Assembly: GCA_964016885.1 (NCBI GenBank)
Contig: OZ024752.1
Location: forward strand, 13,330,001 to 13,394,000
Source of the DNA: Eledone cirrhosa
Taxonomy: Eukaryota
Direction of reading: 5' to 3'
Length of the DNA stretch: 64,000 bases
Of the stretch, positions 3,921-58,818 are shown piece by piece. The notes beneath the pieces were generated by a model. The model searched no databases. It had not been told where the DNA came from and saw only the letters and a program-made list of their open reading frames with translations. The translations under genes were made by a program, and so were the position numbers. The first letter of the stretch is position 1. Each line of letters starts with the position of its first letter.

Positions 3921-4371
3921 ATACACACACATATATATATACATATATATGTGTGTGTGTGTCTGATGGTAGCTAAGATGCTTCCATAGGCGGTATGCCG
4001 GTTGAGCACTCTATGCTCTGACAGAACAGAGTATGATATAATAGAAAACGAAAAATCAGTGATGCATCTGAACTCAATTTATTGTGTGTTACAATTGTTT
4101 TAGACGCGATTATTGTGTGGATCCACGCGTCTCGAGCTGTCTGCCGGCGAAATAATTGTAACCCACAATAAATTGATTTCAAATGCATCATTGATTTTTC
4201 GTTTTCTATTATATATATATATATATATACTTAGGTTAATAGGAGTTAGGTATTGTATACCCGTGTCCCATTAAGGTATTGGCAGCATAATAATTAGCTC
4301 TATGCTTTGGAGCAGATCCGTATATATGATAAAGAACACAAGAGCGTCTACAACATCAAAATATTTTTATT

Positions 4372-4418
4372 GGCTTACAATGTTTCTTCCTTAAATAACC
4401 GTAGGATTCGTCAGAGCT
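4372..4418 (-). ncRNA. Minimal type I hammerhead ribozyme
   Basis: rc: agcu-CUGACGA-a-uccu acgguuauuua agga-a-GAAAC-auu-GUA-agcc. Confidence 0.8.
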
Positions 4419-8205: not shown

Positions 8206-8593
8206 ATTATGTTTCCTTCCTTTCTTCCTTCCTTCCTTCCTTCCTTCCTTCCTTCCTTCCTTCCTTCCTTCCTTCCTTCCTAAGACACCTGCATGATACC
8301 ATGGTTGACATCGTCTCTTTATCAGGGATGAACAATGGGTTAGGTTTCTCACCTTCCCTCCTAATCACAAAGATTATCACTGTCTTACAGTAGACGACAG
8401 GTTAATATAGACCTATAAACGGTCACCAATTTGTTAGAAATTGCAGCCAAATTCTCCTTTAAATCCTACCATCCTAACTTAAAAATAAATGGTCATATGT
8501 AGTCTTAGATCAAGTGCGAAATAAAAAAAAAACCGGATGACCACGACAGGAATGTCTTTGGTCATATGCTGTGTCACTAGATAGCAACTACTA

Positions 8594-8770
8594 TAATTGT
8601 TTCTACTTTTGGCACAAGACCAGCAATTACCCCAGTGCATTACTGGTGCTTTATTTTACCAACACCGTAAGAATGAAAGGCAAAGTTAAACTCGGCGGGA
8701 TTTGAACTCAGAATGTAAAGGGCTATAACTCTATGCTGCAAAGCATGGTGTCTGACGCCCTACCGATGTC
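8594..8770 (-). mobile_element. tRNA-derived SINE, family 1 (octopus OR-like)
   Basis: rc contains ctgagttcaaatcccgccgag...tttgcctttcat...gccttgtgcc..tagaaacaattat; many copies in the window. Confidence 0.85.
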
Positions 8771-9108: not shown

Positions 9109-9391
9109 TATTCTAAAGAAGGATTACAACAGAACAAACCAACAACCAATTACTCCAATGCTAACGCTTTACTATTCTACGTCCAATAAAACATCTATAG
9201 TTATGTAGTTTTATAAACAGGGATTCGGTGTTGAAAGATTTGTAAAAATTTGGTATTTATAATTTGCTTTTATACTTATAAACTTTATATTTAACCTGCT
9301 GTTATAATATAATAAAGTAAGGAGTGCGGGATTGTGTCCTGAATATATTTTTTTTATCCTGTTAGTAAAATAAGTTGGATTACTTTGAATA

Positions 9392-9690
9392 AATAATTGT
9401 TTCTACTTTAGGCACAAGGCCAGCAATTACCCAGTGCATTACTGGTACTCTATTTTATCGACCCTGTAACTTTATTTTATCAACCCCATTACTTTGAATA
9501 AATAATTGTTTCTACTTTAGGCACAAGGCCAGCAATAACCCAGTGCATTACTGGTACTTTATTTTATCTACCCCGTAAGGATGAAAGGCAAAGTCAACCT
9601 CGGCGGGATTTGAACTCAGATCGTAAAGGGACGTAACTATGCTGGAAAGCATGGCGTCCGACCCTCTACCAATACTACCAATCCACCGCA
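9392..9690 (-). mobile_element. SINE family 1: one partial and one full copy
   Basis: Same consensus; full copy at ~9500-9690. Confidence 0.85.
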
Positions 9691-10321
9691 CTTTGAATAA
9701 ATAATGAATGAATATTATATAATTTATGTACAAATTTCGTAGCTGTTGATTAAACATAAATATTCTTATATATAATGATTGCTTATTTTAAGATTCGCTT
9801 CTTTTAAAATTTTCAAATGTCAATACTTCCGGTTATGATATAACGGACACATATCATATCTCCTTATAATATATAACCAGCAATTTCACTGTTTGTCTGT
9901 CTGTCCGACAGTGGAAACACGTGCGCGCGTGAGAATGTTTTTTGCGCACGCGTAGAGAGAGAGTGAGAGTGAAAGAAAGAGACAGACTACGAGAGGGGGA
10001 TAGCAGAAGGGAGAGAGGGAGAGAGAGAGAGTGAATAGACGCTAAAACACGTGCGCGCGTGCGAATGTTTTTTGCGCACGCGTAGAGAGAGAGTGAGAGT
10101 GAAAGAAAGAGACAGACTACAAGAGGGGGATAGCGGGAGGGAGAAAGGGGGGAATTGAGGAGTGCTACAGAAACATATATACATTTCTGTGTGTGTGTAA
10201 TATATATATATATACACACACAGAAATATATATATATACACACAGAAATATATATACATTTCTGTGTGTGTAATATATATATATATACACACAGAAATAT
10301 ATATACATTTCTGTGTGTGTA

Positions 10322-18088: not shown

Positions 18089-18131
18089 GTCACTGAAGAG
18101 GTCACAGAATGTGTGACGAAAGAACTTTGAC
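18089..18131 (+). ncRNA. Minimal hammerhead ribozyme (family A)
   Basis: guca-CUGAAGA-g-gucaca gaaug ugugac-GAAAG-aa-CUU-ugac. Confidence 0.75.
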
Positions 18132-20542: not shown

Positions 20543-20837
20543 TTATATATATATACTTATATATATATATATTTATATATACTTATATATATATATATAC
20601 TTATATATATATATATATTTACCTATATATAGTATTAAGGATACTATTTATGGTTATGTATGTAATAAAACCTTTAATGGTAATATATTATTTATACAAA
20701 CCTTAAATAGTGAAAGATAGTCATTAATTATTATCCTATTACCAGTAAGATAAATAGTTCAATGTAATAACATCAGTTGTTTTACAGAGCAGTTATATAG
20801 AGATTACAATAATCAAAGTTCAGTTTAAGTCATTTAT

Positions 20838-20886
20838 TTGCTTACAATTGTTTCCTCCAAACCGAGGTTTGGATTCTTCGGAGCAA
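20838..20886 (-). ncRNA. PLE pseudo-LTR hammerhead (U4C variant)
   Basis: rc: uugcu-CCGAAGA-a-uccaaacc uc gguuugga-g-GAAAC-aauu-GUA-agcaa. Confidence 0.82.
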
Positions 20887-21561
20887 CTATTTACTGATCT
20901 ATAACATACTTGACCTCCTTTTCAACCCAAGAGACATATAAGACATATGCGCATATTGACCAACAGTGGGGTGACATTCATCAAATGATATAGCATGGCA
21001 ATTTACATATAAAGGTTACAGGATAAAAATAAAAATAAAAACAAAAATGAAAATAAAGATAAACATGAAGCGTTGGCAGTCTATGAAAATAAAGCAAGAG
21101 GAAAGTTTAGAGTAGTCAGTGTATGAAACAATCTCACGTGTAGCATGCACGCGTGTCTTATTTATACATGATTAGAGTGCGTCAGAATGATATTTGCAGG
21201 GTCAGGCAGTTGAAGCAGGCAATCGATCTTATTATGTGGGCTGAATTATTAAGTCATTTATTCGCATACATCTGTATGATATACAGTCCCGGATGCAGGG
21301 AAACACCAAAATATCAGAAACTTTCAACATACTATAAACCTTATTGTATCATAGGCAAAGCCGTACCACTGTCTTCGCTCACCACTCACATAATCCATGA
21401 GATGCAATATATAGAACACGTGTCTATCGTATAATTCACGATGGTTCGGCATATAATCAAGTTATATACCGTATCCAGTCGGTTCTTAATTAATAGATCA
21501 TGCTGTTTAGATTCCGGAAGTGTCTGAATGACTAAGGGGAGTTAAAGCGTAAGGGGAGGTA

Positions 21562-22703
21562 TCTTATGACATAAACACATTTAACAATAACTCGCAGTAT
21601 TATAATCAGGCATTAGCTAGATCAGGCCATAATACAGGGATAGAGTTCCTACCTACAAAAACACATAGCTACAACATCATTTCACACAACATGTCCAGGG
21701 GAAAATTTAATAATAGGAATAGCAACTGCACACACACTAATAGGGATAGTAACAACAAAAGTAACCCGCACCACAGAAATTACCATACGAACATTAAAGG
21801 AAACAAATCACCAGACATAAAAAACAGAAATAGAAGAAGAAATAATACATTTTTCAACCCTCCTTTCAATTTAAACGTCTCTACCAACCTACCTAGGGCT
21901 TTCTTCTCACTACTAGATAAACACTTCCCATCCGGCCACAGGTACCACGGCCTTTTAAACAAAAACACTATTAAGATCTCATACTCTACTACGCCTAACT
22001 TAGCATACCACATAGCTAGTACAAATAAAAGAAAAATTAACTCTTACTTCCAACAAACTAAATCACAACAGTCGATAAACCTTCAAATTAACATTCAAAA
22101 TAACAGTCAAAGTAACATTATAGCAACTAACCGTATTATCAATGGAAATAATAGTAATAGCACTAGTGTAAACATTAACGCTGCGTACCACAACCCACAT
22201 AACCATAACCCTATAGTTAAAATCCAAACTTCTACACAGCATAGTAACCGGCAGACTAGCACCCAGAGTAATTGTAACTGTAGATCAAGTAGAACCTGCC
22301 CTTTAGATAAAAAATGCTTAACCAAGGATATCATATACTCATGTACAGTCACAACTAACAACTCTTCTGAAACCTATATAGGCTCTACTTCTAACTGCTT
22401 CAAAACTAGATACAATTCGTACCTCCACTCTTTCAAAAAACACAGTCTAGCCAACTCCACTTCACTATCCAGCTACATACACTATCTAAAAACTAAAAAT
22501 AAAATATATACACTTAAATGGGAAGTGGTAGGTAGTGCAACATCGTACAAACCACCTAATAAATTTTGTAACCTCTGTCTACTAGAGACCCATACTATCA
22601 TCTTCTCTAAACATAATCTCCTTAATAAAAAAAATCAGAAGTGTTCGCAACTTGCCAACACCGCTTCCGACACTCGTTCCAAAACTTTAAACCCTATATA
22701 TAA
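21562..22703 (+). pseudogene. PLE ORF remnant: RT thumb/linker + GIY-YIG endonuclease
   Basis: NSQYYNQALARSGH..FFNPPFNLNVSTN..CNCRSSRTCPLDKKCLTKDIIYSC..ETYIGST..CNLCLLE. Frameshift in the A-run at ~22626; native stop at 22701-22703. Confidence 0.9.
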
Positions 22704-24629
22704 TAATGTCAGACTGGAACCGGCACCACCCCTAGCAATTAACATCAGTAGCTCACCTTACACCTCACATCCACACCCATTTATATACTCTAAAGATAAT
22801 ACTGACAGCATTTTAGTACCACCTACCCTGGGAATACCCCCTTGTACCTCTAATTCTGATACCTCGACCGTGGACTACTTAAACTGCATTGCACAAGTAT
22901 AAGATTAGTATAAACCGCGGACACGGTACTGGTTGCGATAACATAGTCCTGTGCATGGATTGCCACCAAGAGATAGATTGATGATTAGATAGATAATCGT
23001 ATTGTTATGTGAATATATACTGTAAACGATCAGTTCAATGAACTATCCACAGGTGACGCACGAGTTAGGAGCCTCTGTGTTGCTTGGTGACCGGACCGGC
23101 ATCTTTTGACGAGAGAACCGGCCACTGGACCACCCTGGTGAATTTACCGGGGATGCAGTCATACTACGACCTGAATCTCGCCGGGAGTCATGTACGATAA
23201 TAAGACCATTACTGATAGTGAGACCCATGTAATTAATTAGGTAGTCTGACTCTTCTTATGGATTGGCCAGGTGTGGCACCCCATGTCGGATTGTAGTCTT
23301 CATGATATGAACTCCCTTAGTACTTGTTACTGGACTCCACTCTAGCCTGTGGATGGGATACCTGATCTATATGTGGGATGCGAGTTTATGTATTGCTTGG
23401 TGGCCAGACAGGTGTCCTGGTTTGAGAGATTTAATCTCCAGATTGTAATCATCATGATATGAACTCCTTTAGTACCTATTAATAGACTCCACTATAACTT
23501 GTAGATGTGATACCTAATTGATTTATATATGAGATGGGGGTTGTCTATTGCTTGATGACCAGACTAGTGCCTTTATATGGGAAATTGGATCTCCGGACCA
23601 CCCCGAAGGTATTCAGATTTACCGGGGATTCAGACATGCAATGACCCGGAGCATACCGGGGGGGGGGGGGGTTATATAATAGTGGGACCATACCAGGTCC
23701 TACTGTTATATTACATTTGCATGGAGCAGTGATTTGAGAGTCTGACTCCTCTTATAGAATGTTCAGATATGACACCCCTTAATGGATGGTAATCATCCTA
23801 ATATATACACCCTTGTACTTCTTAATGGACAACTCTCTAACCTATAAATGGGAAACATACTCTAGAAATTAGTTATAACTTGATATGATAGGCACGTATT
23901 TGAATCACCATTAATGTAGTTTAGGATAATAATTTAACCAAGATAACTAGCTAGTTACCTCCCCTTACGCTTTAACTCCCCTTAGTCATTCAGACACTTC
24001 CGGAATCTAAACAGCATGATCTATTAATTAAGAACCGACTGGATACGGTATATAACTTGATTATATGCCGAACCATCGTGAATTATACGATAGACACGTG
24101 TTCTATATATTGCGTCTCATGGATTATGTGAGTGGTGAGCGAAGACAGTGGTACGGCTTTGCCTATGATACAATAAGGTTTATAGTATGTTGAAAGTTTC
24201 TGATATTTTGGTGTTTCCCTGCATCCGGGACTGTATATCATACAGATGTATGCGAATAAATGACTTAATAATTCAGCCCACATAATAAGATCGATTGCCT
24301 GCTTCAACTGCCTGACCCTGCAAATATCATTCTGACGCACTCTAATCATGTATAAATAAGACACGCATGCATGCTACACGTGAGATTGTTTCATACACTG
24401 ACTATTCTAAACTTTCCTCTTGCTTTATCTTCATAGACTGCCAACGCTTCATGTTTATCTTTATTTTCATTTTGTTTTTATTTTTATTTTTATCCTGTAA
24501 CCTTTATATGTAAATTGCCATGCTATATCATTTGATGAATGTCACCCCACTGTTGATCAATATGCGCATATGTCTTATATGTCTCTTGGGTTGAAAAGGA
24601 GGTCAAGTATGTTATAGATCAGTAAATAG

Positions 24630-24678
24630 TTGCTCCGAAGAATCCAAACCTCGGTTTGGAGGAAACAATTGTAAGCAA
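24630..24678 (+). ncRNA. PLE pseudo-LTR hammerhead (U4C variant)
   Basis: uugcu-CCGAAGA-a-uccaaacc uc gguuugga-g-GAAAC-aauu-GUA-agcaa. Confidence 0.82.
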
Positions 24679-24774
24679 ATAAATGACTTAAACTGAACTT
24701 TGATTATTGTAATCTCTATACCTATATATATATATACTTATATATATATATACATACTTATATATATATACTTA

Positions 24775-25468
24775 TTTTATGGAACCATAACATCTTCAAT
24801 AGAAAAACTATAAAACTTTCATACTCTACTGCAGCCAACATTGAATGGTTCATACGCAAGATGAACCACAAAAATACCTCTAAGAAAACTATCCTACCTA
24901 TACGCAACATAGCACAAAACACTAAACACAAACGCATTACTTTATCACAACCACAAACGCATAGGAACACACCACAGCACAACATCAATAGGCATGAATC
25001 ACAACCCGCACATAACATTTTGCAAAACCGCAATGTGAAAGCTGCAATAGTCACCTACCAGATGAGTGCCCATTAGCGAATAGGTGCCTAGATTCTAGCC
25101 TAGTGTACATGTGTACTGTAAACTCGGGGAACCCCACATGGCACTACATTGGATCCACCGCGGGTGTTTTTAAAAAAAGGTGGTTTGTACACAGACATTC
25201 AATGAAGAACCGTACACTGGTAAATTCTACAACCTTCGCCAATAAAATCTAGCAACTTAAGGACAAAAACCTTGATTACAATATTATCTGGTCGAAATTA
25301 GCGGCCGCAAAGGCCTATAGCAGCGGTATGTCTCATTGCGGGCTCTGCAACCTTGAATTGCTACATATCTTAAGGAACGATACAATGCTACTCAACAGCA
25401 AAATAGAAAGGTTAATTTTCTGCAGACATAGGATTGCTACAAAATTCACGAGATTTAAACCACCGTGA
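24775..25468 (+). pseudogene. Decayed GIY-YIG region of a third, divergent PLE family
   Basis: IFNRKTIKLSYSTAANIE ... HYIGSTAGVFKKRWFVHRHSMKNRTLVNSTT..YNIIWSKL..AYSSGMSHCGLCNLE..LLNSKIE..CRHR..RFKPP*, with internal stops. Confidence 0.85.
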
Positions 25469-26713
25469 TTCGAACCAGCATCCTCTATATTAATGGAAAA
25501 TCACTTAGCATTTAACATATGAAATCCGCATTCTCACACAGCCCATTTCAGAACCATAATCTTCTATAATAACCTTCTAGCCTCCCTACATCTATACCAC
25601 CAGGATGGGGCAGTAATGTCTACAACTATCTTGTCAGCCAATATATCAATCCCATCTTTTCTGTTGTTTATTCTTTCGGACCAAACAATTATATCTACGT
25701 ATCTCATATTTGCACTCATTATCTCTAACAGATGAACTTAATTCTAAGTACATTATCTTATTACCCCTACACTCATTGAAATCTTCTTTTCTTCTTCTTA
25801 TTATTATGATCATCTCAATATATCCCTAATTTTATTCATCATGTTCACTCTATTTACCATGCTTCTTTTATTGTTTTTATTACTTTTATTGTTGTTATTA
25901 TTGTCTTATTTACACACTGTTTGTTATTGATGTTGTGAAAACTAAACCCCATGATTCGAACTAACAATCCCAACTTTTAGAATAGGCCACCTAAACCTTT
26001 AAATACTGAATCTACAACTTCACTTAATACCACATAAGAACCATATATCTCTATACACCTACTCTATCCATCTCACTAAGTTGATACAACGAAAATACTT
26101 ATCTGTCAAACTATAAATCAATCTCCGGTTTATTGCTAGTGTGCTTTTAGACCTACAGCACACTTATATCCCTCATAATTACTCCTAAATCCTGACTCCA
26201 AGTACATTTTATCAGTTATCTCTTCACCCCTTTAATACTACATCTAATGTACCCTATAGCAGTTTTCACATGTCAATTTCATACATCTGTATCATATCAG
26301 TTCGTTTAATATGCTACATTTATCATTACACTCTATTTCTTACTTATATTAATGTTATTATTTTAACTATTCAGTATCTAGTTATTTTATTATTGATATT
26401 ATTGTTCTGGTTTAACGATTGACGCAACATCAAGCGATTAGTGAACTCTAGACCTACCAGATCAAAGAAACAATTGTCAGCAATGTGAATATAGCCAACC
26501 ATGTCACTCTCCTTTCTTGAATTATTATTACTCCAAGTATAACCTACATAGAAATCACCGCGAACTCGCAGCATCACTATGGAAACGTCTTGTTGAGTCA
26601 AACAAAGCCATACGTTAATACGATGCACAACACGGAGTACTCTAATTGGACTACATCTAAGTTGACTACATGTAAGTGGACTCCCTATAACGATAACCTG
26701 TGATTCCGTATTT

Positions 26714-26744
<31 letters not shown>

Positions 26745-35126: not shown

Positions 35127-35765
35127 TAAACGGAAAAAATGAAACGATATTTCATTTCCCACTCTTAGTACGGCTGTTACTTAAATATAGTATGTACACG
35201 TACATACATATATGTATACCGACGTACAGTAGTATGTATATATATATACATACATGCACACATATATATATGCACGTATGGATTCACCGAACATTTATTA
35301 TAATGCTCGGTGTGCTTGTAAACAAACATCCCGTATTAAGCCGTAGTGTCTAGCAACCACCGTTGCTCGTTTGTTCAACACTGACAAAGGAACGCTGTAC
35401 TAGTTTCAAGCTTGTTAGCTATCGTCAGCAACGTATACCTTCCTGCCAGATTGTTGAAGTATATACTTACCTTATGCATATTAACGGCTGAGTAGCCCAA
35501 TTTGCATATCGAGTGGGTTAATCGGCCGGGTGCACCGAAAACGATAAACGGAAAAAATGAAACGATATTTCATTTCCCACTCTTAGTACGGCTGTTACTT
35601 AAATATAAGTATGTACACGTACATACATATATGTATACCGACGTACAGTAGTATGTAAATATATATACATACATGCACACATATATATATGCACATGTGT
35701 GCATGTATGTATATATATATACATACTACTGTACGTCGGTATACATATATGTATGTACGTGTACA
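35127..35765 (-). mobile_element. ~420-bp terminally redundant non-coding element with a hammerhead (retrozyme-like) and terminal foldback
   Basis: 35127-35275 is repeated directly at 35545-35693; ~35610-35765 is a palindrome; both flanks are (TA)n. Confidence 0.75.
35392..35434 (-). ncRNA. Minimal type I hammerhead ribozyme
   Basis: rc: acguug-CUGACGA-u-agcu aaca agcu-u-GAAAC-ua-GUA-cagcgu. Confidence 0.85.
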
Positions 35766-36382: not shown

Positions 36383-36472
36383 TTAATCTGTTATTTTAAT
36401 AAATATATATATATATATATAAATATATATATATATAATTATATATACATATATAATTATATATATATATAT

Positions 36473-36509
<37 letters not shown>

Positions 36510-36947
36510 TATAATTATATTTATAAATAATTATATATATATATAAAATTATATATATATACATATATATATATAATTATATATATATATATAATTATAT
36601 ATATATATAATTATATATATATATAATTATATATATATACATATATATATAATTATATATATATATATAATTATATATATATATATATATATATAATTAT
36701 ATATATATATATATAATTATATATATATATATATATATAATTAGTATTAGTTATACTATTTATGGTTATGTAAACACAAAACCGTAAGCAGTTGTAAGTA
36801 TTTTACACACACCCTAAATAGTGGTAGGCAGTAATGTATTACTACCTTATTACCAGTAAGTTAAGTAGCTCAATGTAAAAACATCAGATGATTTACAGAG
36901 CAGTTATATGAAATATAAGAATCAAAGAACTGTTCAAAACATTATTG

Positions 36948-36994
36948 TGCTTACAGCTGTTTCCTCCAAACCGAGGTTTGGATTCTTCGGAGCA
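36948..36994 (-). ncRNA. PLE pseudo-LTR hammerhead (U4C variant)
   Basis: rc: ugcu-CCGAAGA-a-uccaaacc uc gguuugga-g-GAAAC-agcu-GUA-agca. Confidence 0.85.
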
Positions 36995-38437
36995 ATTTAT
37001 TAATGCATGGACAGTTATATGACCTCCTTTTCAGCCGAGAGACATACCAATACATATTCAAACATTGATACATATTCAAACATTGTGGGTCAACATTCAT
37101 TACAAAATTTAGAGTGGCAGCACACACTTCGAGATTACATTTATATTAATAGGTACAATCAAAAATCAAAGATATAGGTTAAAGTACAACATGAAGATAA
37201 GTGGTTATATAGTGCAAATGTTATATGTGTGGCACGCATGTGCGTCTTGTTTATATAGTGTGGCAGAGAGATATGTGTGGTAGAGGCACTTAGGTAGGTA
37301 AATAAGAGTGTTAGGTTGGTAGATCTGGTGGCAAAGTCTTTATATGATTGATATAGTCTGTGTGTGGAGAAATATTATAAGCATTAAAGATAGTGCAAGC
37401 ATTAAAAGTGTTATAAGTATTGGAGATGCACAGCGCAGGGATGTCAAGTAATTCATGTACTTCGGCATTTTCATGGTCAAGGGAGTGTATATTTCGATTA
37501 TATGCCTTTCACATAATCCACGACAATTCAGTTAGAGATCGTAGTCTGGTGTTCATTAGTTCGATACAGGAGGTTGTTACGTTTCGAGAGACGCCATTGA
37601 ATACCGGAAGTGTGTGTGTGGCTAAGGGGAGTTAATGCATGCGGGGAGGTAACTCTGGGGTTTCTATATCTAGCCAATAAAATGTGTCCCAATATAGACC
37701 CTAAATTCTATGGTGAGGTGCACCTTCCAAGAGAGACTTTTAAAGCATAAAGTGTACTAACTATAGAGTAGTTTAACTAAATTATGCTGAAGGTGATCAT
37801 ATTATTATTAAGGTGGATTAACCCATCTTAAGGTGCTACAAATGGAAATTATAGATGATGAGCGAGGATTCTAAATTAATGATCTCTGTGGTTGTAGTCT
37901 GCTCGTAAGACCAGGCGCGGTGATTGCAGGATTGCTTCAGGACCCAATGATCTCTGGTAAGATCTGGGTCATCGCTTGCTACATTGGATGTCGAAAGATA
38001 ATCGTCCCCAGGCAGGCCAAAGGTCAATCCGCAGTCCTCGCGACCCCTCTCTGACCGTCAGATCATCCATATACGTACAACCCGCACGGCAGTTGCATTG
38101 CATTCACTCACTGCGCTCAGCAGCCTGGTCCTACTGGTCAACAGCGCTACTCGATTAAATCATTTTACATCTGTCTAAGGAAGGTGTTTCCTCTGCCCAA
38201 CACCATCCAACCGATCAATACATGCTCAAATTACCCTTAGAGCGGTGTAGTGCCGTCCAGGTGGGTGGATGTTGTCACACCTGCCGTAGAGGTATAAATG
38301 GGTATTTTCCCTGCGAAGGGTTCCAGAGGGATGTCGTTGTTTGTGTTATAATGGATCAGCTAGTGTTGGGTATGTAGTATAGGGTGTGTCTCTGGTGTTT
38401 GATGCTAGATGTGGTGTTAGGTTCCAGTCCGACATTG

Positions 38438-40897
38438 CTATATATAGGGCTTAAAGTTTTGGAAGGAATGTCTGAGGCGGTGCTGGCAAGTTGCAAACAC
38501 CTCAGATTTTTTGTTAAGTAGGTTACGGTTGGAGAAGATAATATTGTGTGTCTCTAGTATACAGAGGTTACAGAATTTATTAGGTGGTTTGTACGAGGTC
38601 GCGCTGCCTATCACTTCCCATTTGAGTGTGTATGGTTTATTTTTAGATTTTAGATAGTGTATGTAGCTAGAAAGTGAGGTGGAGTTGGCTAGGCTGTGCT
38701 TTTTGAACGAGTGGATGTGCGAGTTATATCTAATTTTGAAGCAGTTAGAAGTGGAGCCTACATAGGTTTCTGAAGAGTTATTAGTCGTGACTGTGCATGA
38801 GTATATGACATCCTTGGTTAGGCATTTTTTATCTAAAGGGCAGGTTCTATTAGCTCTACAGTTACAATTATTCTGTGCGTTAGTCCGCTGGTTATAATGC
38901 AATGCGGAAGTCTGTGTGGTGGATATAGGATTTTGGGTGTTCAGGTTGACAACCCTGGTGTTATTACTTATACTAGTGTTATTTCTATTGTTACTGCCGT
39001 TGCTATTGTTGCTTGCTACAGTGGTATTTAGAGGGTTTGCATCCCGTTGTGATTTTGTTTGTTGGAAGTAAGAACTAATTTTACTATTATTGCTGCTAGC
39101 TATGTGGTATGCTAAGTTAGGCGTCGTAGAGTATGAGATTTTAATGGTGTTTTTGTTTAAGAGGTTGTGGTACTTGTGTCCTAGAGGGAAGTTTTTATCT
39201 AGTAGTGAGAAGAAAGCCCTAGGTATGTTGGTGGAGACATTTAGGTTGAAAGGAGGGTTGAAAAATGTATTATTTCTTCTTCTATTTTTGCTTTTAGTGT
39301 TTGGTGTGTTGCTTCCTCCTAAGGCCTCACAGTAGTTTCCATGGTAATGGTTACTTCCGGTGGCACCCTCGGCTTTGGTGTACTTGTGGTTGCTATTCCT
39401 ATTATTAGATTTCCTCATGGACATGTTGTGCGAGATGATGTTGTAGCTATTTGTTTTCTTAGGTAGGAACTCAATTTCTATATTATGGCCGGAGCTAGCT
39501 AATGCTTGATTGTAATATTGTGAGTTTTTGCTAAATATGTTTGCGTCATAGGACAGACTAGAGATTCTATTGGACACCCCCTTAGAGATAGAGTTTAATA
39601 TTGATCTAGGGTGATTAGACTTGGTATCTACGTAAATAAGTTTCTCATTAGGCTTATGGAAGGGTGTATATATTTTTGAGTCTAGGTATAGTGTGGCGTC
39701 TAGGAAGTTAACATTTTTAGTGTTTTTGTCCATGGTGATACTAAGGTTAAAGTTTTTGAATGTCTTATGCAGTTGTTTTCTAGTTCTTTCTATATTAAAT
39801 TTTTTATATTCTATGAGTAGAAGTGCATCATCGCGGTACAAACCACCGTTGAGGTAAGGGAGGTCTTTATGGATTTCATTGAGGAGGTATAGGCCGACCA
39901 AATCAGTGACCTGCGCCGAGTCACTAGATCCCATGGTTATGTCGAAGTTGTTGTGCGTATCCTTGCGTGTCCATAGTTGGTCCTCGAAGGTGATTATGGT
40001 TTTACGGGCCGCAAGGATGACATCAACCTGGGCTCTAGTCAGGTCGCTATTGGTCATGGCCATGATAAGTGCCTTATTTAATAGGATAGGGGAAATAGAG
40101 GTGTAGTATGAATTGATATCAAATTGAATAAATTTTTTGTTCTTATTATTCTTGATATCCTTAAACCATTCAATTACTTCACCCGTATTTCCCCATTGTT
40201 TAAGGTGTATCTTGTGTTTAATTTGTGGGATGATTTTATCCAAAATCTTCTTGCTGATAATACCAATGTCGGACTTGGAAGGGCAGATAAGTCTTATCGT
40301 GGGGTTGCTGATGAAGTTCTCCTTATGGTCCTTCAGAGAGAATCTAGGGGGGTTCGGAGTGAAAGGTTGTGTATGCCTCTGTAGTCCTAGTTTAGACACT
40401 ATATTATAACCCTCTACATTAATATCTTCTAAGTTTTTCAAGGTGGTTTTTTTGTAGCTTTTATGTAGTTCATTATATATAAACTTTCTATAAGTAATAT
40501 AATCTAGGCTGTATATGTTATTAGTTTTATCTGCGTGTACAATAATTTTATTACTAGTTTTGAATCCACTAATAGAAGTGTTAAGTTTGTTTAAGAAGGT
40601 GTTGCTTCTAATATGGTGCTTATTGTATTTAATGTTCTTAACTAGTTTAACTAGGTCATTTTCAAAGGAGTTAAGTAGAGTGTTATGAGGGGGGCTTTTA
40701 AAGGTTTTAAAGCCGAAGGAGTCAAAATTGTTAGTATTATTCAAGTTGTTAGATTTGTTTCTATCATAATGGAATGTCCTCCATCTCACTCTATTGATAA
40801 ATGAATTTACACTGTTGATCAGCAATTTCTCATATGTATTCCTGGATGGTATTGGTATGTTCTTGGTTGACATGGGGAGTTGGTCTTTGATTAGCAT
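38438..40897 (-). CDS. PLE polyprotein: reverse transcriptase + C-terminal GIY-YIG endonuclease (819 aa)
   Basis: PLE RT motifs HADKTNNIY, LKDHKENF..PTIRLI, FIQFDINSYY, FDITMGS, GLYRDDAL, VNFLDATL, SNHP. Endonuclease CNC..CPL..CL..VIY..TYVGST..FKIRY..H..CNLC..E..LLN..CQH. Confidence 0.96.
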   Translation of the reverse strand: MLIKDQLPMSTKNIPIPSRNTYEKLLINSVNSFINRVRWRTFHYDRNKSNNLNNTNNFDSFGFKTFKSPPHNTLLNSFENDLVKLVKNIKYNKHHIRSNTFLNKLNTSISGFKTSNKIIVHADKTNNIYSLDYITYRKFIYNELHKSYKKTTLKNLEDINVEGYNIVSKLGLQRHTQPFTPNPPRFSLKDHKENFISNPTIRLICPSKSDIGIISKKILDKIIPQIKHKIHLKQWGNTGEVIEWFKDIKNNKNKKFIQFDINSYYTSISPILLNKALIMAMTNSDLTRAQVDVILAARKTIITFEDQLWTRKDTHNNFDITMGSSDSAQVTDLVGLYLLNEIHKDLPYLNGGLYRDDALLLIEYKKFNIERTRKQLHKTFKNFNLSITMDKNTKNVNFLDATLYLDSKIYTPFHKPNEKLIYVDTKSNHPRSILNSISKGVSNRISSLSYDANIFSKNSQYYNQALASSGHNIEIEFLPKKTNSYNIISHNMSMRKSNNRNSNHKYTKAEGATGSNHYHGNYCEALGGSNTPNTKSKNRRRNNTFFNPPFNLNVSTNIPRAFFSLLDKNFPLGHKYHNLLNKNTIKISYSTTPNLAYHIASSNNSKISSYFQQTKSQRDANPLNTTVASNNSNGSNNRNNTSISNNTRVVNLNTQNPISTTQTSALHYNQRTNAQNNCNCRANRTCPLDKKCLTKDVIYSCTVTTNNSSETYVGSTSNCFKIRYNSHIHSFKKHSLANSTSLSSYIHYLKSKNKPYTLKWEVIGSATSYKPPNKFCNLCILETHNIIFSNRNLLNKKSEVFATCQHRLRHSFQNFKPYI

Positions 40898-41146
40898 ATT
40901 GGCAATATTATATGTCAGCTCAACGATATGGAGCAGTTAATAGTATTAGTTATACTATTTATGGTTATGTAAACACAAAACCGTAAGCAGTTGTAAGTAT
41001 TTTACACACACCCTAAATAGTGGTAGGCAGTAATGTATTACTACCTTATTACCAGTAAGTTAAGTAGCTCAATGTAAAAACATCAGATGATTTACAGAGC
41101 AGTTATATGAAATATAAGAATCAAAGAACTGTTCAAAACATTATTG

Positions 41147-41193
41147 TGCTTACAGCTGTTTCCTCCAAACCGAGGTTTGGATTCTTCGGAGCA
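41147..41193 (-). ncRNA. PLE pseudo-LTR hammerhead (U4C variant), upstream copy
   Basis: Same sequence as 36948-36994, 4199 bp away. Confidence 0.85.
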
Positions 41194-42340
41194 ATTTATT
41201 AATGCATGGACAGTTATATGACCTCCTTTTCAGCCGAGAGACATACCAATACATATTCAAACATTGATACATATTCAAACATTGTGGGTCAACATTCATT
41301 ACAAAATTTAGAGTGGCAGCACACACTTCGAGATTACATTTATATTAATAGGTACAATCAAAAATCAAAGATATAGGTTAAAGTACAACATGAAGATAAG
41401 TGGTTATATAGTGCAAATGTTATATGTGTGGCACGCATGTGCGTCTTGTTTATATAGTGTGGCAGAGAGATATGTGTGGTAGAGGCACTTAGGTAGGTAA
41501 ATAAGAGTGTTAGGTTGGTAGATCTGGTGGCAAAGTCTTTATATGATTGATATAGTCTGTGTGTGGAGAAATATTATAAGCATTAAAGATAGTGCAAGCA
41601 TTAAAAGTGTTATAAGTATTGGAGATGCACAGCGCAGGGATGTCAAGTAATTCATGTACTTCGGCATTTTCATGGTCAAGGGAGTGTATATTTCGATTAT
41701 ATGCCTTTCACATAATCCACGACAATTCAGTTAGAGATCGTAGTCTGGTGTTCATTAGTTCGATACAGGAGGTTGTTACGTTTCGAGAGACGCCATTGAA
41801 TACCGGAAGTGTGTGTGTGGCTAAGGGGAGTTAATGCATGCGGGGAGGTAACTCTGGGGTTTCTATATCTAGCCAATAAAATGTGTCCCAATATAGACCC
41901 TAAATTCTATGGTGAGGTGCACCTTCCAAGAGAGACTTTTAAAGCATAAAGTGTACTAACTATAGAGTAGTTTAACTAAATTATGCTGAAGGTGATCATA
42001 TTATTATTAAGGTGGATTAACCCATCTTAAGGTGCTACAAATGGAAATTATAGATGATGAGCGAGGATTCTAAATTAATGATCTCTGTGGTTGTAGTCTG
42101 CTCGTAAGACCAGGCGCGGTGATTGCAGGATTGCTTCAGGACCCAATGATCTCTGGTAAGATCTGGGTCATCGCTTGCTACATTGGATGTCGAAAGATAA
42201 TCGTCCCCAGGCAGGCCAAAGGTCAATCCGCAGTCCTCGCGACCCCTCTCTGACCGTCAGATCATCCATATACGTACAACCCGCACGGCAGTTGCATTGC
42301 ATTCACTCACTGCGCTCAGTTCATATATATAATTATATAT

Positions 42341-42397
<57 letters not shown>

Positions 42398-42428
42398 TAT
42401 ATATATATATATATATATAATTATATAT

Positions 42429-42499
<71 letters not shown>

Positions 42500-43534
42500 A
42501 ATATATATATATATATATATAATTATATATATATATATATAATTATATATATATATATATAATTATATTAACATACATATACATGTGTTATATGCATTTT
42601 TATGAATATATGTCTGTCTGTATATATGCATGAGTGACGCGTGTCTACCAATTGGGTGATGCACACACATGTGTATATATGTATATGTAAGAATTGTGTG
42701 TGTACATGTACATGTGTACCCATACAATCTGATTGCAGATAGGCATAATTTAACAGCCATAAATGCATGAAAGCTAATCCTATATATTTTTATATATATA
42801 TATTAACATTTTTTATTTAATAACACAAGGGATGTATAACATTAATAATTAAACAAAATCATTTATTCTTTGTATGTATATATTATATACGGGAGTAGAT
42901 ATAATACGTATCTTCTGAGTGTGTATATATATATATATTTATGTGTATTTTTTGCGTGTGTTATATGATAGGTAATTTTCTCTAGCAATATATAGATTTC
43001 TTAATGTTTAAATTCCATTTTTTAATATATTGATCTCAACTTTTAAACTAAATATCTAATCATAGTTAAACAATGATTAATTTCTCATATTATATATGTA
43101 TATTCCATTCCTGAATATTAATATTTCTAATTTTATTTATTCATTTCATCTCAATTGATAACTTAACTTAATATGACATGAATTAAGGTTTTCGTTCTCT
43201 CCACCCTCTCTATCTCTATATTTCTCTCTTGATTTTTTCTCTATATTTCTCTCTCTTGATTTTTTCTCTCTGTTTTTTACTCTCTGTCTGGTGTTTTGAT
43301 ATCTCTCTCCTTTTTCTTTTTTTCTTTTTTCTTTTTTCTTTTTTCTTTTTTCTCTTTTTATTTCTTTATATCTCCCTTTCTTTCTCAACTTTTCTCTCTC
43401 TCCGTCTTTTTCCTTCTCCATAACACAATGACTTACTAAGATAAACAAATCCAATATCCCTGATGTCTTCCAAATGTAACGGTTGCATTTTGAAAGGGTA
43501 TGTCAAAATTTATTTATAAAACTGGTATATATTG

Positions 43535-43659: not shown

Positions 43660-44610
43660 ATGAAAAATTGAACAGGGACAGAACAAAGAGGCAGTACGAT
43701 AAATGTTTATTAAATTCACGCGCAGGAGAGTGGGGGGTAGGTGGGGGACGACGTTTCGGGCATAAGCCCTTCTTCAGGTGAGAGTTCAAAAGGTGTGTAG
43801 GGGAGTGGTGGAGAGACATATAGCGAAAGGAAACGGTGCGAATGAAAAATTAACAAATAAAGACAAAAATATAATAAATAATAAATAAAAATAAAGCATG
43901 ATCAAAATACAAGAAATGAGAAAATTTAAAAATAAAGGCATGATCAAAATAAACTGAAATTAAAAGGGGGGGTAAACAGGTGGTGGAAGGGTGTGGGGTG
44001 AGTAGAGGTGGTGGCGGGTGGAGTGGGGAGAGGGAGACGGGGTGTCCGAGCGGGGAGGGCTGAAGGTGGTGTGTGTGGTTAGGTGTGCGTGTGTGTGTGT
44101 GTATGTGAAAGTGAGGGTTGGGGGAAGAACGAGGTTGCATGTTCAGGAAGGTGTGTGTGGGGGGTGTTTTTGTGGGTCGGAGGGTCTGTGCGTGTGTAGA
44201 TAGGGGGTGGGGGGAGAGGAATCAGGGGGCTGAGGGGGTAAATATGTGGTGGGAAGCACGTGTGTGTGGTTTAAGCGTGTTGTGGTGTGGGTGGCGTGTG
44301 GATAAAAAAAATTTGTTTGGGGTGTGTGTGTGGGTGAGTTATATAGGTGATGGTGTAAGAGGATGGTTGAAAAGTGGTAAGTTACACGGATGTATGGAGA
44401 TTTTGGTTGGAAGTCAATAACGCGTGTGGGTAATCCAAGAAGCGGTAGTCGGAAGAGGAGAGATGTGCGGTGCGCGCGCAACAGGAAGTGGTCAGCAGTG
44501 GAAGTGCTGTGGTCAGTTGGTGCTGAGACAGTGGTCGGAAGGGCATAGCAGCAGTCGGCGGAATGGTAGGGAGGCGAGGATGGGTAGGTGTGAGAGTTGG
44601 AGTGAGATAA
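43660..44610 (-). mobile_element. Non-autonomous repeat family D
   Basis: Colinear with 30390-31185; flanked by (TA)n. Confidence 0.8.
43747..43780 (-). ncRNA. Ultra-minimal hammerhead (loopless ACGU stem III)
   Basis: rc: ac-CUGAAGA-a-gggc uuau gccc-GAAAC-GUC-gu; stem I is only ~2 bp. Confidence 0.62.
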
Positions 44611-45427: not shown

Positions 45428-45751
45428 TAGGCAGTTATTAGATATGCCAGCTCTGTGTTTATAGTGTTGATGGTATCAAAGCCTTGGGACATATCAGCTT
45501 GTTAGGAATAATTTAATGTTTTAATGTTGTCAGCCGGAATAGTCTTAATTCTCATTGGTCAGTTTTTAGATGCTAGTAGGGTTGGTATTTGACCTCAAAG
45601 AGGCAGGTGGTGTTGTAAAGTTCAAACCGTCAGGCAAGATGACAATAGTTCCATAAGACTGATTTTCACAAAAAGCATTCCTGGTCAGGTATATATTCAA
45701 TTAAGGTTAATAGTATGAGATAGATACTACAGGTCATTATTAAATTGAGGA

Positions 45752-45943
45752 GGGCGGTGGATTGGCAGTATCGGTAGAGGGTCGGACGCCATGCTCTCCA
45801 GCATAGTTACGTCCCTTTACGATCTGAGTTCACATCCCGCCGAGGTTGACTTTGCCTTTCATCCTTACGGGGTCGATAAAATAAAGTACCAGTAATGCAC
45901 TGGGTAATTGCTGGCCTTGTGCCTAATGTAGAAACAATTATTA
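45752..45943 (+). mobile_element. SINE family 1, full copy
   Basis: ggcggtggattggcagtatcggtagagg..ctgagttcacatcccgccgaggttgactttgcctttcatccttacggggtcgataaaataaagtaccag..tagaaacaattatt. Confidence 0.9.
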
Positions 45944-46169
45944 AATTGAGGAATTTATGTGGAGTGGTACTACTGAAAATTATGTTTAGAGTAGAAAATT
46001 TACAAATAAAAAGACTTATGTAGGTTGGCTTGCACGTACACTCACACCCACCTTCACAGACACACACACATATCCACACATGCAAATTGAGGAACTAATG
46101 TGGGGTGGTAATACTTAAAATAATGCTTAGAGTCAAATACTTAGATAGTTTAGAAAATTTAGAAATAAA

Positions 46170-46335
46170 AAATAAATATTTATTTGGTTCCTTTACCGGA
46201 TTCGCAGTTCTGCTTTTCAAAAGTAGAGTTGAGATGGAGGGTCTGTGGTTTTTCTCAAAACCACAGACACTCCATCTCAACTCTATTTTTGAAAAGCAGA
46301 AGAACTGCGAAACCGGTAAAGGAACCAAATAAATA
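46170..46335. repeat. Foldback of family B with a U3-A8 hammerhead at 46286-46321(+)
   Basis: tatttggttcctttaccgg..gtctgtggtttt|aaaaccacagac..ccggtaaaggaaccaaata. Confidence 0.85.
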
Positions 46336-46680
46336 TATATATATACACACAATAAATATATATATATATATATAAATATACCAAATAAATATATATATAT
46401 ATATATACACACGTATATATATATATACGTGTGTGTATATATTTTTATACTCGAGTTGATAGAGGGGGGGGGGATCGAGAAGTGACAGGGAATCTGATTG
46501 ACTGATAGTATAAATAGATTAGTTTGGAGTAAAAGCTAGCAAGTAATTAAATTGGTTGTTGGTTGGGTGTGACATTAAAAACAGGACAAGTGGACATAAT
46601 CTGTAGACGGGGTCATAGGCTTCCTGTTGGTAATGTTTATATTATTCGGAGAGAGATATGGGGGCGTGTGAAAGAAATAA

Positions 46681-46896
46681 AACGACCTTATAAATAGTAT
46701 TAGTCAGAGACCTCTGTTAAAACGAACTTATAAATAGTATTAGTCAGAGACCTCTGTTAAAACGAACTTATAAATAGTATTAGTCAGAGACCTCTGTTAA
46801 AACGAACTTATAAATAGTATTAGTCAGAGACCTCTGTTAAAACGAACTTATAAATAGTATTAGTCAGAGACCTCTGTTAAAACGAACTTATAAATA
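46681..46896 (+). repeat. 40-bp minisatellite, ~5.4 copies
   Basis: aacgaacttataaatagtattagtcagagacctctgttaa starting at 46681, 46721, 46761, 46801 and 46841. Confidence 0.97.
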
Positions 46897-47275
46897 ACTG
46901 TTTCTACTTTTGGCACAAGGCCGGAAATTACCCAGTACATTACTGGTACTTTATTCTATCGACCCCGTAAGGATGAAAGGCAGAGTTAACCTTGGCGGGA
47001 TTTGAACTCAGAATGGCAAGGGCCGCAACTCTATGCGTTAAAGCATGGCGTCCGACCCTCTACCGATACTGCTAATTCAAGCAGACATAAAATAATTGTT
47101 TCTACTTTAGGCACAAGGCCAGCAATTACCCAGTACATTATTGGTACTTTATTTTATCGACCCGTAAGGATGAAAGGCAAAGTTAACCTAGGCGGGATTT
47201 GAACTCAGACTGTAAAGGGACGTAACTATGCTAGAAAGCATGGTGTCTGACGCTCTACCGATTCTGACAATCTAA
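46893..47275 (-). mobile_element. Two tandem SINE family 1 copies
   Basis: Consensus match at 46893-47075 and 47090-47275; a deleted copy lies at 47615-47740. Confidence 0.88.
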
Positions 47276-52545: not shown

Positions 52546-53001
52546 ATGCTGATTCCGAAAGCGTGGAGATGGCTGTAAGTCTGAGAAAAAGAAGATAAGG
52601 GGGGGGGGGGGAGGGGGGAAATAGCATTGATGAAAATTAAGAAGTCACAGAAAGAGTCTCATTTGACGTCTCATTGCTTTGACTGTGTTCAAAGAACACT
52701 GAGAAGCTGTCATGATGTGAAATGTTTATGCCCGGCACGAATCATCATGATACAGGTTACCTTTATCCAACATTGAGGTGATTTCCTCTTGTCCATTACA
52801 GTTAGTTACCTTTGAATTCTTTAAAACTCTAGTGATTAGGTTTCACCATGCTGTTCACTTTACACAGATACAATGATATATCTGAAACAAATATTAAAGA
52901 ATTAGACTCTATCAAGTTTATTCCGAACACCGTGTATATAGGTTAATTTAATTGGCAAGTACTAAAATATTAAGAGCAACGCAGTTTTATAACTTAGCAA
53001 G

Positions 53002-53380
53002 AAATAATTGTTTCTACTTTAGGCACAAGGCCAGCAATAACCCAGTGCATTACTGGTACTTTATTTTATCGACCCCGTAAGGATGAAAGGCAAAGTCAAC
53101 CTCGGCGGGATTTGAACTCAGATCGTAAAGGGACATAACTATGCTGGAAAGCATGGCGTCCGACCCTCTACCGATACTGCCAATCCACCAAGAAATAATT
53201 GTTTCTACTTTAGGCACAAGGCCAGCAATAACCCAGTGCATTACTGGTCCTTTATTTTATCGACCCCGTAAGGATGAAAGGCAAAGTCAACCTCGGCAGG
53301 ATTTGAACTCAGATCGTTAAGGGACGTAACTATGCTGGAAAGCATGGCGTCTGACCCTCTACCGATACTGTCAATCCACC
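53002..53380 (-). mobile_element. Tandem dimer of SINE family 1
   Basis: Two near-identical ~190-bp copies head to tail. Confidence 0.9.
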
Positions 53381-54144
53381 AAAAAATAATGAATGTTTAT
53401 ATACTGCAGGATGAACTAATCAAAGAAAGAGCAGAATATATGAAACAACTTTGCTATGGTTATCATCGGTTTCGGAAGAGCGTCTTCTAAGTTTTGAAAA
53501 GGGGTCTTCTGTCACTTTCTGAAGAGAGCCTTCTGTCAGTTTCTGAAGAGCGCCTTCTCTCACTTTCTGAAGAGTATATTACTTCAGTTTCTTCATTAGT
53601 TTCTGAAATTCCCCTATTTTGTCACGATGAAGACCCTCATGTCGATAGCTCCTATTTCTAGATATGTAACTCTACTTAGATGTAAATTCTATCTCTTCAC
53701 TCTGGAAGTGGCGGCACTGATAAACGTTCTTAATGTGAATCAACAGAATGACTGCACCTGTACAGCCCATATCATAGATGTTAAGGTATCGGACTTACGA
53801 TCGTAATGCCGTGGGTTTGGTTCCTGAATAATGAAGCGCATTATGTTCGTGTGCAAAATACTTTAATTTTCGTTTCTTCAGTCTACTCGGTTGACAATTA
53901 GTACCAGAATTAACTGGGGGGGCGTCCAATTAACTGATATCCTGTACTCTGTCACGTAAAGCCAATAAAACTGTGATAAACAACAACCTGATGAACCCCC
54001 TGGATTGAGGCTAAGATTTTAACCTCTTAACATTGCTTCGTCTTTATTTAAATGTCATTCATTTTTCATTCCCCCCCCCCTTTATTAAAAATAAAATCTT
54101 GCAGTATATCTTAAAGGCAGTGTGAGGTGGTCATCCATTGTATG

Positions 54145-54209
<65 letters not shown>

Positions 54210-54215
<6 letters not shown>

Positions 54216-54900
54216 ATAAGAATATTTATATTTATATGTTTAATACAATTATAAATATGGAGGTTAGTACTAAGTCCTAGTTGGTTACCGGTATGACAAA
54301 AGGCTCATTGCAAATTATCAAGTGTTTTACAGAGCCGAGATACAAAGTGTTAAAACGATCAAATTTTAGTTTAGAACATTTATTTGCTGACAGTTGTTTC
54401 TTCCAGAGGGGAGTCTGGTATCATCGGAGCATAGGGAATGTCAAAACATGTGACTAAAATCCTAGTCATTCAGAACATTTAGGGTACATAATTGTTGTTA
54501 GTGTCATAGACATCATGTGGAGAGTCAGGAGTTAAAAAGATGTTATGCTCGAGAGAGCACAATTACAGGCAGCACTGGTTGAAAGTGTAAGACGTATAAG
54601 CAAAAAGTACAGGTAAAAAAGTTATAAGCAAGGAAAAGTGTGGGTTAGGATAGATATAAGATATAAGATATCTTCACATTGGAGAACAGTTAATGTTATG
54701 GGTGTACACTGCAGAAGTCAATACAGTCAATAAGGCATGTATGAGGAAAGAGTTATAATGCAGTTGAAATAAACATATTTTGTGTGGGGTGTTAAAGCAT
54801 GTTATAATTGTTAAAAATGTTTAAGATAGCGTGCTATTTGTTAGAGAAGCATGTGGTGATAATGTAGGGATTTGTTATGTGTTTTTGTAGGTATATTATC
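54210..54900 (-). mobile_element. Solo PLE pseudo-LTR of a divergent family
   Basis: ttttacagagc..aacatttatttgct resembles the pseudo-LTRs at 20630 and 36742, with a hammerhead at the equivalent position; abuts (TA)n. Confidence 0.7.
54385..54431 (-). ncRNA. Hammerhead ribozyme (U4C variant)
   Basis: rc: ugcu-CCGAUGA-ua-ccaga cucccc ucugg-aa-GAAAC-aacu-GUC-agca. Confidence 0.78.

Positions 54901-55862: not shown

Positions 55863-58818
<2,956 letters not shown>

Follow-up and report, generated by a model that had tools for sequence, protein, structure and literature searches.

A probably recently inserted, Hydra-like Penelope-like element with a U4C hammerhead motif in Eledone cirrhosa

A 64,000-nucleotide stretch of the Eledone cirrhosa genome (GenBank assembly GCA_964016885.1, contig OZ024752.1, positions 13,330,001 to 13,394,000, forward strand), hereafter called the window and used for all coordinates, was analyzed. 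On its minus strand an element was identified which, with good confidence, is an intact Penelope-like element (PLE) with Hydra-type protein motifs that was likely inserted very recently into (TA)n, is likely to be mobile, and carries a hammerhead ribozyme motif with C instead of U at core position 4 (U4C), predicted to cut slowly and in a dimer-dependent manner. The one unusual trait is this U4C hammerhead, which is kept in three related families and whose cutting would likely be slowed; apart from it the finding is ordinary, since recently active octopus PLEs and an octopus Hydra family were already reported. The insertion is composed of the following features (LTR, long terminal repeat; pLTR, pseudo-LTR; ORF, open reading frame; RT, reverse transcriptase; UTR, untranslated region).

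36742..42319, minus strand: whole insertion, 5578 bp, a 5'-truncated copy (upstream pLTR) plus one full unit of 4199 bp
40941..42319, minus strand: upstream pLTR, the last 1379 bp of a second, 5'-truncated unit (exact repeat, and read contigs running past 38120/38121)
40898..40940, minus strand: leader, unique, 43 nt, from the pLTR end to the first ATG
38438..40897, minus strand: ORF of 819 aa, RT plus C-terminal GIY-YIG endonuclease
39446..40897, minus strand: RT region, residues 1-484, TERT-like fold, with D260 and YRDD (354-357) intact
38441..38884, minus strand: CxCx5C linker and GIY-YIG domain (Y712, G714, R723, H727, E782, N795) with CxxC and CxH
36742..38437, minus strand: 3' UTR of 1.7 kb, of which the last 1379 bp (36742-38120) are the downstream pLTR
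41147..41193, minus strand: type I hammerhead motif, upstream copy, C4 at 41188, core start 41189, predicted cut 41151/41150
36948..36994, minus strand: type I hammerhead motif, downstream copy, C4 at 36989, core start 36990, predicted cut 36952/36951
36742..36758, minus strand: 3'-terminal 6-bp hairpin, weak fold (-2.6 kcal/mol)
36399..36739: (TA)n array, 3' flank
42320-42322: linker of 3 nt between the 5' end of the insertion and the TA array
42323..42561: (TA)n array, 5' flank

The ORF was read on the minus strand from the ATG at 40897 to a stop that ends at 38438, with no internal stop. The two repeats (36742-38120 and 40941-42319) were aligned over 1379 bp with 0 mismatches at an offset of 4199, the longest exact run at that offset. 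An earlier note on this DNA, made from the letters alone, had described an uninterrupted 819-aa RT plus GIY-YIG ORF, two 1379-bp direct repeats alike by eye and (TA)n at both flanks; all three descriptions were borne out, the ORF also by matches of both folds, and its reading of an intact, very recent PLE insertion is supported. Its proposal of a candidate driver is plausible in the sense of a donor copy, because the upstream repeat is present; by analogy, this upstream pLTR likely supplies the promoter. The letters of the 3-nt linker were absent from the matching place in the unit. Within 40898-41400, one donor-like and no acceptor-like site was found for a leader intron, and two upstream ATGs open frames of 2-4 codons each.

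Contigs from all four sequencing runs (X1, X2, X5 and X6) extend over 38120/38121 by more than 31 letters to either side, as seen among the 32 of 2732 read-contig pieces listed. The unit therefore measures 4199 bp, with the upstream repeat representing a second copy truncated at its 5' end. True LTRs were ruled out, as the read contigs carry the unit onward across this point. Such a partial tandem is the usual PLE form according to PMC8557442.

The absence of differences over 1379 bp places the divergence of the repeats below 0.22% (95% bound), which gives an age bound of about 0.3-0.6 Myr at the octopus rate of 0.0036 per Myr quoted in PMC13282606, as long as the repeats were not evened out by polishing or conversion. 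Among the contig pieces listed, the near-identical ones differed from the window in 12 of 3242 (X1), 3 of 766 (X2), 23 of 3445 (X5) and 18 of 2427 letters (X6), corresponding to 0.37-0.74%; three X2 and two X6 pieces, 4-12% different, were left out as other subfamilies. The family is considered young because its pieces are 99.3-99.6% identical in runs that carry four organism codes; these codes may reflect sister species, synonyms or horizontal transfer. Single X2 pieces reached about 870-2950 in depth, whereas several rare joints had 6-8; this hints at many copies, although depth was not taken as copy number. Among the sequencing runs listed with the family there was no RNA run, a result that carries no information on expression. 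A search of viral contigs returned 79 pattern matches, none of them a relative. The insertion is likely very recent.

The protein was modelled with AlphaFold at a mean predicted local distance difference test score (pLDDT) of 86.9. Two N/S-rich low-confidence insertions at about residues 485-536 and 629-673 account for the extra protein length (71 and 75 residues versus homolog medians of 21 and 15). The top Foldseek match was TERT (3du5, E 1.5e-8). In the VIA structure comparison, TERTs occupied the top six rows (Z 16.9-17.9), led by Candida telomerase 6zd1 (Z 17.9, root-mean-square deviation (rmsd) 4.0, 306 aligned), with the RTs of diversity-generating retroelements (DGR) and group II introns close behind (Z 16.8 vs 17.9). 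The C-terminal domain, 148 residues folded together with 60 relatives from metagenomic loci, was compared with 48,161 chains; I-TevI 1ln0 was best (Z 9.3, rmsd 2.4, 89 aligned), followed by T4 EndoII (Z 7.7) and the UvrC GIY-YIG domain (6.4), and a restriction endonuclease was also in the top four. Among 7998 scored candidates 395 homologs were found, the best with 38% identity over 99% of the length. In the alignment of 113 of the 120 homologs listed, YRDD, Y712, G714, R723 and H727 were invariant (113/113), and E782 and N795 were kept in 111. The CxCx5C motif and the terminal CxLC..CxH motifs that the earlier note had named were located at residues 678-686 (CxCx5C), 776-782 (CxLCxxE) and 804-806 (CxH). 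Among neighbours in the ESM Atlas, the share of members labelled HTH_animal or GIY-YIG ranged from a minority to most. Of the ORF variants in read contigs, 13 of the 23 listed were synonymous (from 40 of 197 variant rows).

Four related sequences in the window were used for comparison.

20630-24711: sister PLE family, an inverted 5'-truncated copy (20630-21564, minus strand) joined to a truncated forward copy (21562-24711)
54212-54431, minus strand: diverged 3' fragment (54-kb family), 67% identity over 148 bp, C4 hammerhead, 3' end on (TA)n
4229-4414, minus strand: related 3' fragment (4-kb fragment), hammerhead with the same stem I and canonical U4
24760-26700, plus strand: Hydra-like fragment, endonuclease region 25070-25462, 39% identity, one in-frame stop

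The sister family was 80% identical to the element in nucleotides over 1190 bp of the ORF and 68% in amino acids. Its arms are 98% identical to each other, and it has a 3' UTR of about 2 kb, two U4C hammerheads and a frame shift near the C-terminus; its arrangement of an inverted and a forward truncated copy is typical of PLEs. The ratio of nonsynonymous to synonymous changes (dN/dS) between the two families was 0.14 in the endonuclease (residues 673-799), 0.22 in residues 535-612 and 0.60 in the N-rich insert. On these sequence comparisons the protein is under purifying selection relative to the sister family. At the 3' terminus the stem of the hairpin is kept in the sister family and its loop is changed.

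Hammerheads were searched with a descriptor that admitted C at position 4. Matches in shuffled sequence were rare, with a mean of 0.01 per shuffle of the unit (200 shuffles) and 0.03 per shuffle of the window (n=30), none of the latter with C4. A plain pattern search found no canonical hammerhead core in the repeats. With Rfam, the whole window had 0 matches when gathering thresholds were applied; relaxing the limit to E <= 10 for 36700-42400 gave five chance-level matches, none of them a hammerhead. Canonical descriptors and Rfam are thus shown to miss real PLE hammerheads. The motif has a 7-bp stem II and a palindromic stem III, and core positions other than 4 are canonical. The earlier note had reported two hammerheads exactly one unit (4199 nt) apart; both motifs and their spacing were recovered, and the non-canonical core, which it did not mention, has to be added. 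C4 was found in both repeats, in both copies of the sister family (20881 and 24635) and in the 54-kb family. The 4-kb fragment has U at this position and is a possible outgroup for dating U4C. Read-contig pieces cover position 4 in X1 (36976-37176) and X5 (40940-41194), and their few differences fall elsewhere.

For a wider comparison, 77 metagenomic loci were used, 62 of them eligible (matched ORF end plus at least 100 nt downstream), with position 4 left free in the descriptor. A hammerhead was found in 37 of the 62 loci, always with U4 (37/37); in the other 25 the descriptor found none. U4 also stands in all 26 Hydra rows of File S2 of PMC8557442, though that search demanded a canonical core. 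The hammerhead lies 1448 nt from the stop codon, whereas the metagenomic relatives have a median distance of 153 nt and at most 524; the 3' UTR is about 10 times longer than theirs and had no nucleotide match in the 77 loci. Between the element and its sister family the 3' regions were 57% identical over 959 aligned columns, and the longest identical run, 38 nt, comprises stem I, core and stem II; no part of the 3' UTR is better conserved than the hammerhead. In stem III, both sides of the palindrome have changed and self-complementarity is kept. Stem II of the 54-kb family has one compensated and three broken pairs. The predicted pairing probability in a 200-nt context was about 1.0 for stem II and 0.05 for stem I, and a duplex between two stem III copies was predicted at -11.1 kcal/mol. 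From these comparisons the motif is under selection, but fast monomeric cutting is unlikely. In the literature searched, a U4C hammerhead came up only in PMC3088659, and a description of this variant in PLEs was not found; subscription literature, notably Lunse et al. 2016, might hold one. Three near-identical hammerheads with canonical core were observed in another dispersed repeat family (2356-2390, minus; 18093-18127, plus; 56830-56864, minus), and further minimal motifs at about 43747-43780 (minus, seen by eye) and 35398-35428 (minus) probably belong to other PLE families.

The homologous 3' ends of the element, the sister family and the 54-kb family adjoin 40-mers with 31-39 of 39 TA/AT steps; in the host background, TA-rich 40-mers make up 12-19% of positions (thresholds 30-20). 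The 3' end of the 4-kb fragment, placed by eye, scores 22 steps. These data support a (TA)n bias and do not prove targeting. Two copies (at window position 24711, and at a loose end of X6 at 41104) stop on TA some 40-50 nt beyond the predicted cut, not 210, which hints at a second preferred 3' end. The Hydra-like fragment at 24760-26700 lies beyond the sister copy, separated from it by a short TA tract, which suggests a nested insertion in the same array; no hammerhead was found by the descriptor at 24740-26720.

Several points weigh against the reading of an intact, recently inserted Hydra-type element. The TA arrays could have grown after insertion, and the identity of the repeats could also reflect assembly polishing or gene conversion. 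The joint between pLTR and leader is crossed by a single listed piece (X1, 40762-40969), whose short side of 29 letters lies under the bar of 31. The copy has private changes relative to the read majority, e.g. N483H and L652P, which sit at the edge of or inside the poorly conserved insertions. Pfam stayed below cut-off for both RT and GIY-YIG (GIY-YIG E 0.019, 15.7 vs 22.6 bits), and the two domains are therefore assigned from folds and conserved residues. Profile searches against PDB sequences gave nothing better than E > 0.3. For the C-terminal domain, Foldseek returned no endonuclease match at E <= 0.001, all being at E > 0.2, although its first rows were T4 EndoII and Hpy188I.

A mechanism was drawn up from PMC11167929 and PMC8557442. 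A promoter in the upstream repeat would drive a transcript across the ORF, the RT-endonuclease protein would bind its own RNA, and the GIY-YIG domain would nick (TA)n or AT-rich DNA. The RT would then copy more than one unit length by target priming, leaving a full unit and a 5'-truncated copy. Uncleaved RNA would most likely be the main template, and the hammerhead would cut occasionally, helped by the second hammerhead and the protein. The 3' end of the insertion (36742) lies 210 nt beyond the predicted cut; the template was therefore uncleaved RNA or a circle, and a cleaved linear monomer is excluded. Poseidon PAc mostly used uncleaved RNA as its substrate, and cutting by its hammerhead required the protein; mutating the hammerhead left insertion in vitro normal, and RNA-seq reads neither started nor stopped at the cut site (PMC11167929).

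Alternatively, both hammerheads cut efficiently and release an RNA of 4199 nt; once circular, this RNA would serve as the template for reverse transcription beyond one unit length, giving the partial tandem. Such a route, already proposed in PMC4209133, is agreeable with a strongly conserved motif that is canonical except at position 4, and the palindromic stem III would let both copies on one transcript pair with the predicted duplex energy. U4C considerably lowers hammerhead activity in vitro and still permits viroid infectivity (PMC3088659); PLE hammerheads are of low activity even as dimers (PMC4209133). The PAc results and the excluded linear template also speak against it. The earlier note had proposed double self-cleavage into a unit-length circle, which so far is unsupported: the spacing of 4199 nt follows from the perfect duplication and adds no independent evidence of a circle, the core carries U4C, and stem I is predicted to pair poorly. 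Efficient cutting on both sides is hence an unlikely explanation, and a unit-length circle, though possible to a similarly limited degree, is not needed to explain the structure.

Less probable still is that the hammerhead no longer cuts and that its fold is kept as a protein-binding or template-positioning RNA element, leaving U4 free to change. This would account for C4 in three families and for a very stable stem II beside an unstable stem I, and cleavage was not needed for PAc insertion (PMC11167929). However, C3, G5, A6, G8, A9, G12-A14, U16.1 and H17 and the stem III palindrome are all kept in the element and its sister family, which would be expected if both catalysis and dimer formation continue to be important.

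That the upstream repeat stems from a duplication made in assembly, or became homogenised once inserted, which would make repeat identity uninformative on age and donor status, is very improbable: both repeats do share letters that differ from the listed read contigs (37105/41304 and 37677/41876), and PLE tandems trouble assemblies (PMC8557442), but shared private letters are also expected if one RNA gave both copies, partial tandems are normal for PLEs (PMC8557442), the 3-nt linker at the 5' end is not found in the unit, youth is shown separately by the difference of less than 1% to read contigs, and the X1 piece over the pLTR-to-leader joint is free of differences and shares 30 letters with the piece that follows. 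Read-contig support for this joint is suggestive. An uncleaved RNA as main template of a young, intact insertion is the preferred explanation.

It is further conceivable, though we hold it with considerable doubt, that a Hydra-like sub-lineage, probably octopod, has fixed a throttling U4C, so that the ribozyme would cut only as a protein-assisted dimer, keeping long templates and giving an occasional circle. If true, this sub-lineage is invisible to canonical hammerhead searches, and the intact young copy is a natural test of whether hammerhead catalysis matters for PLE transposition. The function of hammerheads in PLEs is called unclear in PMC8557442. A young, intact element whose conserved ribozyme carries an activity-lowering core change offers a ready comparison of C4, U4 and a dead core, and would supply a Hydra-type RT-endonuclease protein for a (TA)n nicking assay. 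In the literature searched, no biochemical study of the Hydra clade was found. In Octopus vulgaris, 31 recently active Penelope-like families with 336 insertions were reported (PMC13282606), and the present family may already sit in the repeat library of that work.

Other features of the window were noted. A block at 37600..37654 (minus strand; second copy 41799-41853) is conserved with the sister family, has 4 matches in the window, a number reached in 0 of 100 shuffles, and coincides with the inversion breakpoint of that family. It includes a motif which we take to resemble an ETS promoter site, and is a candidate promoter or RNA element. Both repeats contain an 18-bp tandem duplication (37050-37085 and 41249-41284). 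A repeat of about 190 bp resembling a short interspersed nuclear element (SINE) is present in many copies, 85-96% identical and partly tandem (8593-8767, 9379-9710, 45734-47270, 52983-53395 and others). At about 5250-5600 (plus strand) the sequence reads by eye like what is presumably the start of the endonuclease region of a long interspersed nuclear element (LINE).

Compared with known systems, the element is an endonuclease-positive (EN+) PLE and Hydra-like: its RT fold is nearest to TERT, the GIY-YIG domain with its R, H, E and N lies in the same ORF, and the copy is a partial tandem with pLTRs. The endonuclease is C-terminal and there is no N-terminal CxC, with only two cysteines (205 and 523) before residue 678. 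Naiad and Chlamys, which have an N-terminal endonuclease with CxC linker, were thereby ruled out. Neptune and Nematis have a CX2-5CxxC linker plus a CCHH motif and were ruled out as well; the linker here is CxCx5C, and CCHH is absent, as no CxxC lies between the two tyrosine motifs. C701 and C719 stand alone and lack conservation (position 701 is A in 99 of 113 homologs). The closest named homologs are two Argonauta hians proteins, GAB1604561.1 and GAB1599935.1 (P0003 and P0033), with 38-39% identity, which are not annotated as PLEs. In a quick tree that comprised unnamed homologs and these two proteins, the pair grouped with the element at 100% SH-aLRT; this support may be inflated by long branches and by the N-rich composition that they share.

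Poseidon PAc of Anolis carolinensis (PMC11167929) likewise has an RT with C-terminal GIY-YIG domain, a tandem with pLTRs, a hammerhead in which C3 and G8 are conserved, and an AT-rich target. It belongs to a different clade, and its hammerhead overlaps the start codon, whereas the predicted cut here lies 253 nt upstream of the ATG. The same U4C substitution is known from a plant viroid variant (Ambros and Flores 1998, as cited in PMC3088659); unlike the viroid case, it recurs here in three retrotransposon families and in a type I, dimer-type hammerhead.

The nearest system is the Hydra clade as defined by Craig et al. 2021 (PMC8557442), in which the earlier note had tentatively placed the element; protein motifs and (TA)n preference agree with this placement, but the hammerhead core and the length do not. 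Shared with that clade are a single RT-endonuclease ORF, YRDD, DKT in place of DKG (D123-K124-T125), the CxCx5C linker with CxxC (776-779) and CxH around E and N, an RW-basic motif, and insertion into (TA)n, seen at both flanks and at the homologous 3' ends of two other families. Judged by eye, the ORF runs colinear with the File S4 Hydra proteins. As regards the insertion-in-fingers domain, which the clade lacks, the spacing from motif A to motif B resembles theirs, again by eye. The architecture of the hammerhead also fits: it is of type I and close to the 3' end, its stem II has one additional letter at either side, and its stem III is short and palindromic; only the core deviates from the canonical form, by C4. 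The RWK site reads RWR (38-40), as in Hydra-1_Crog; among the homologs the third position is R in 28 of 113 and K in 79. The unit of 4199 bp exceeds both the "generally <3 kb" of the clade, worded as a tendency in PMC8557442, and the 2.1-2.7 kb of complete File S1 families, and the protein of 819 aa with its two N/S-rich insertions, together with the long stop-to-hammerhead distance, sets the element further apart. Hydra-1_Obim of Octopus bimaculoides, a member of the clade, is listed without pLTR, unlike the element described here, which by eye forms a separate family.

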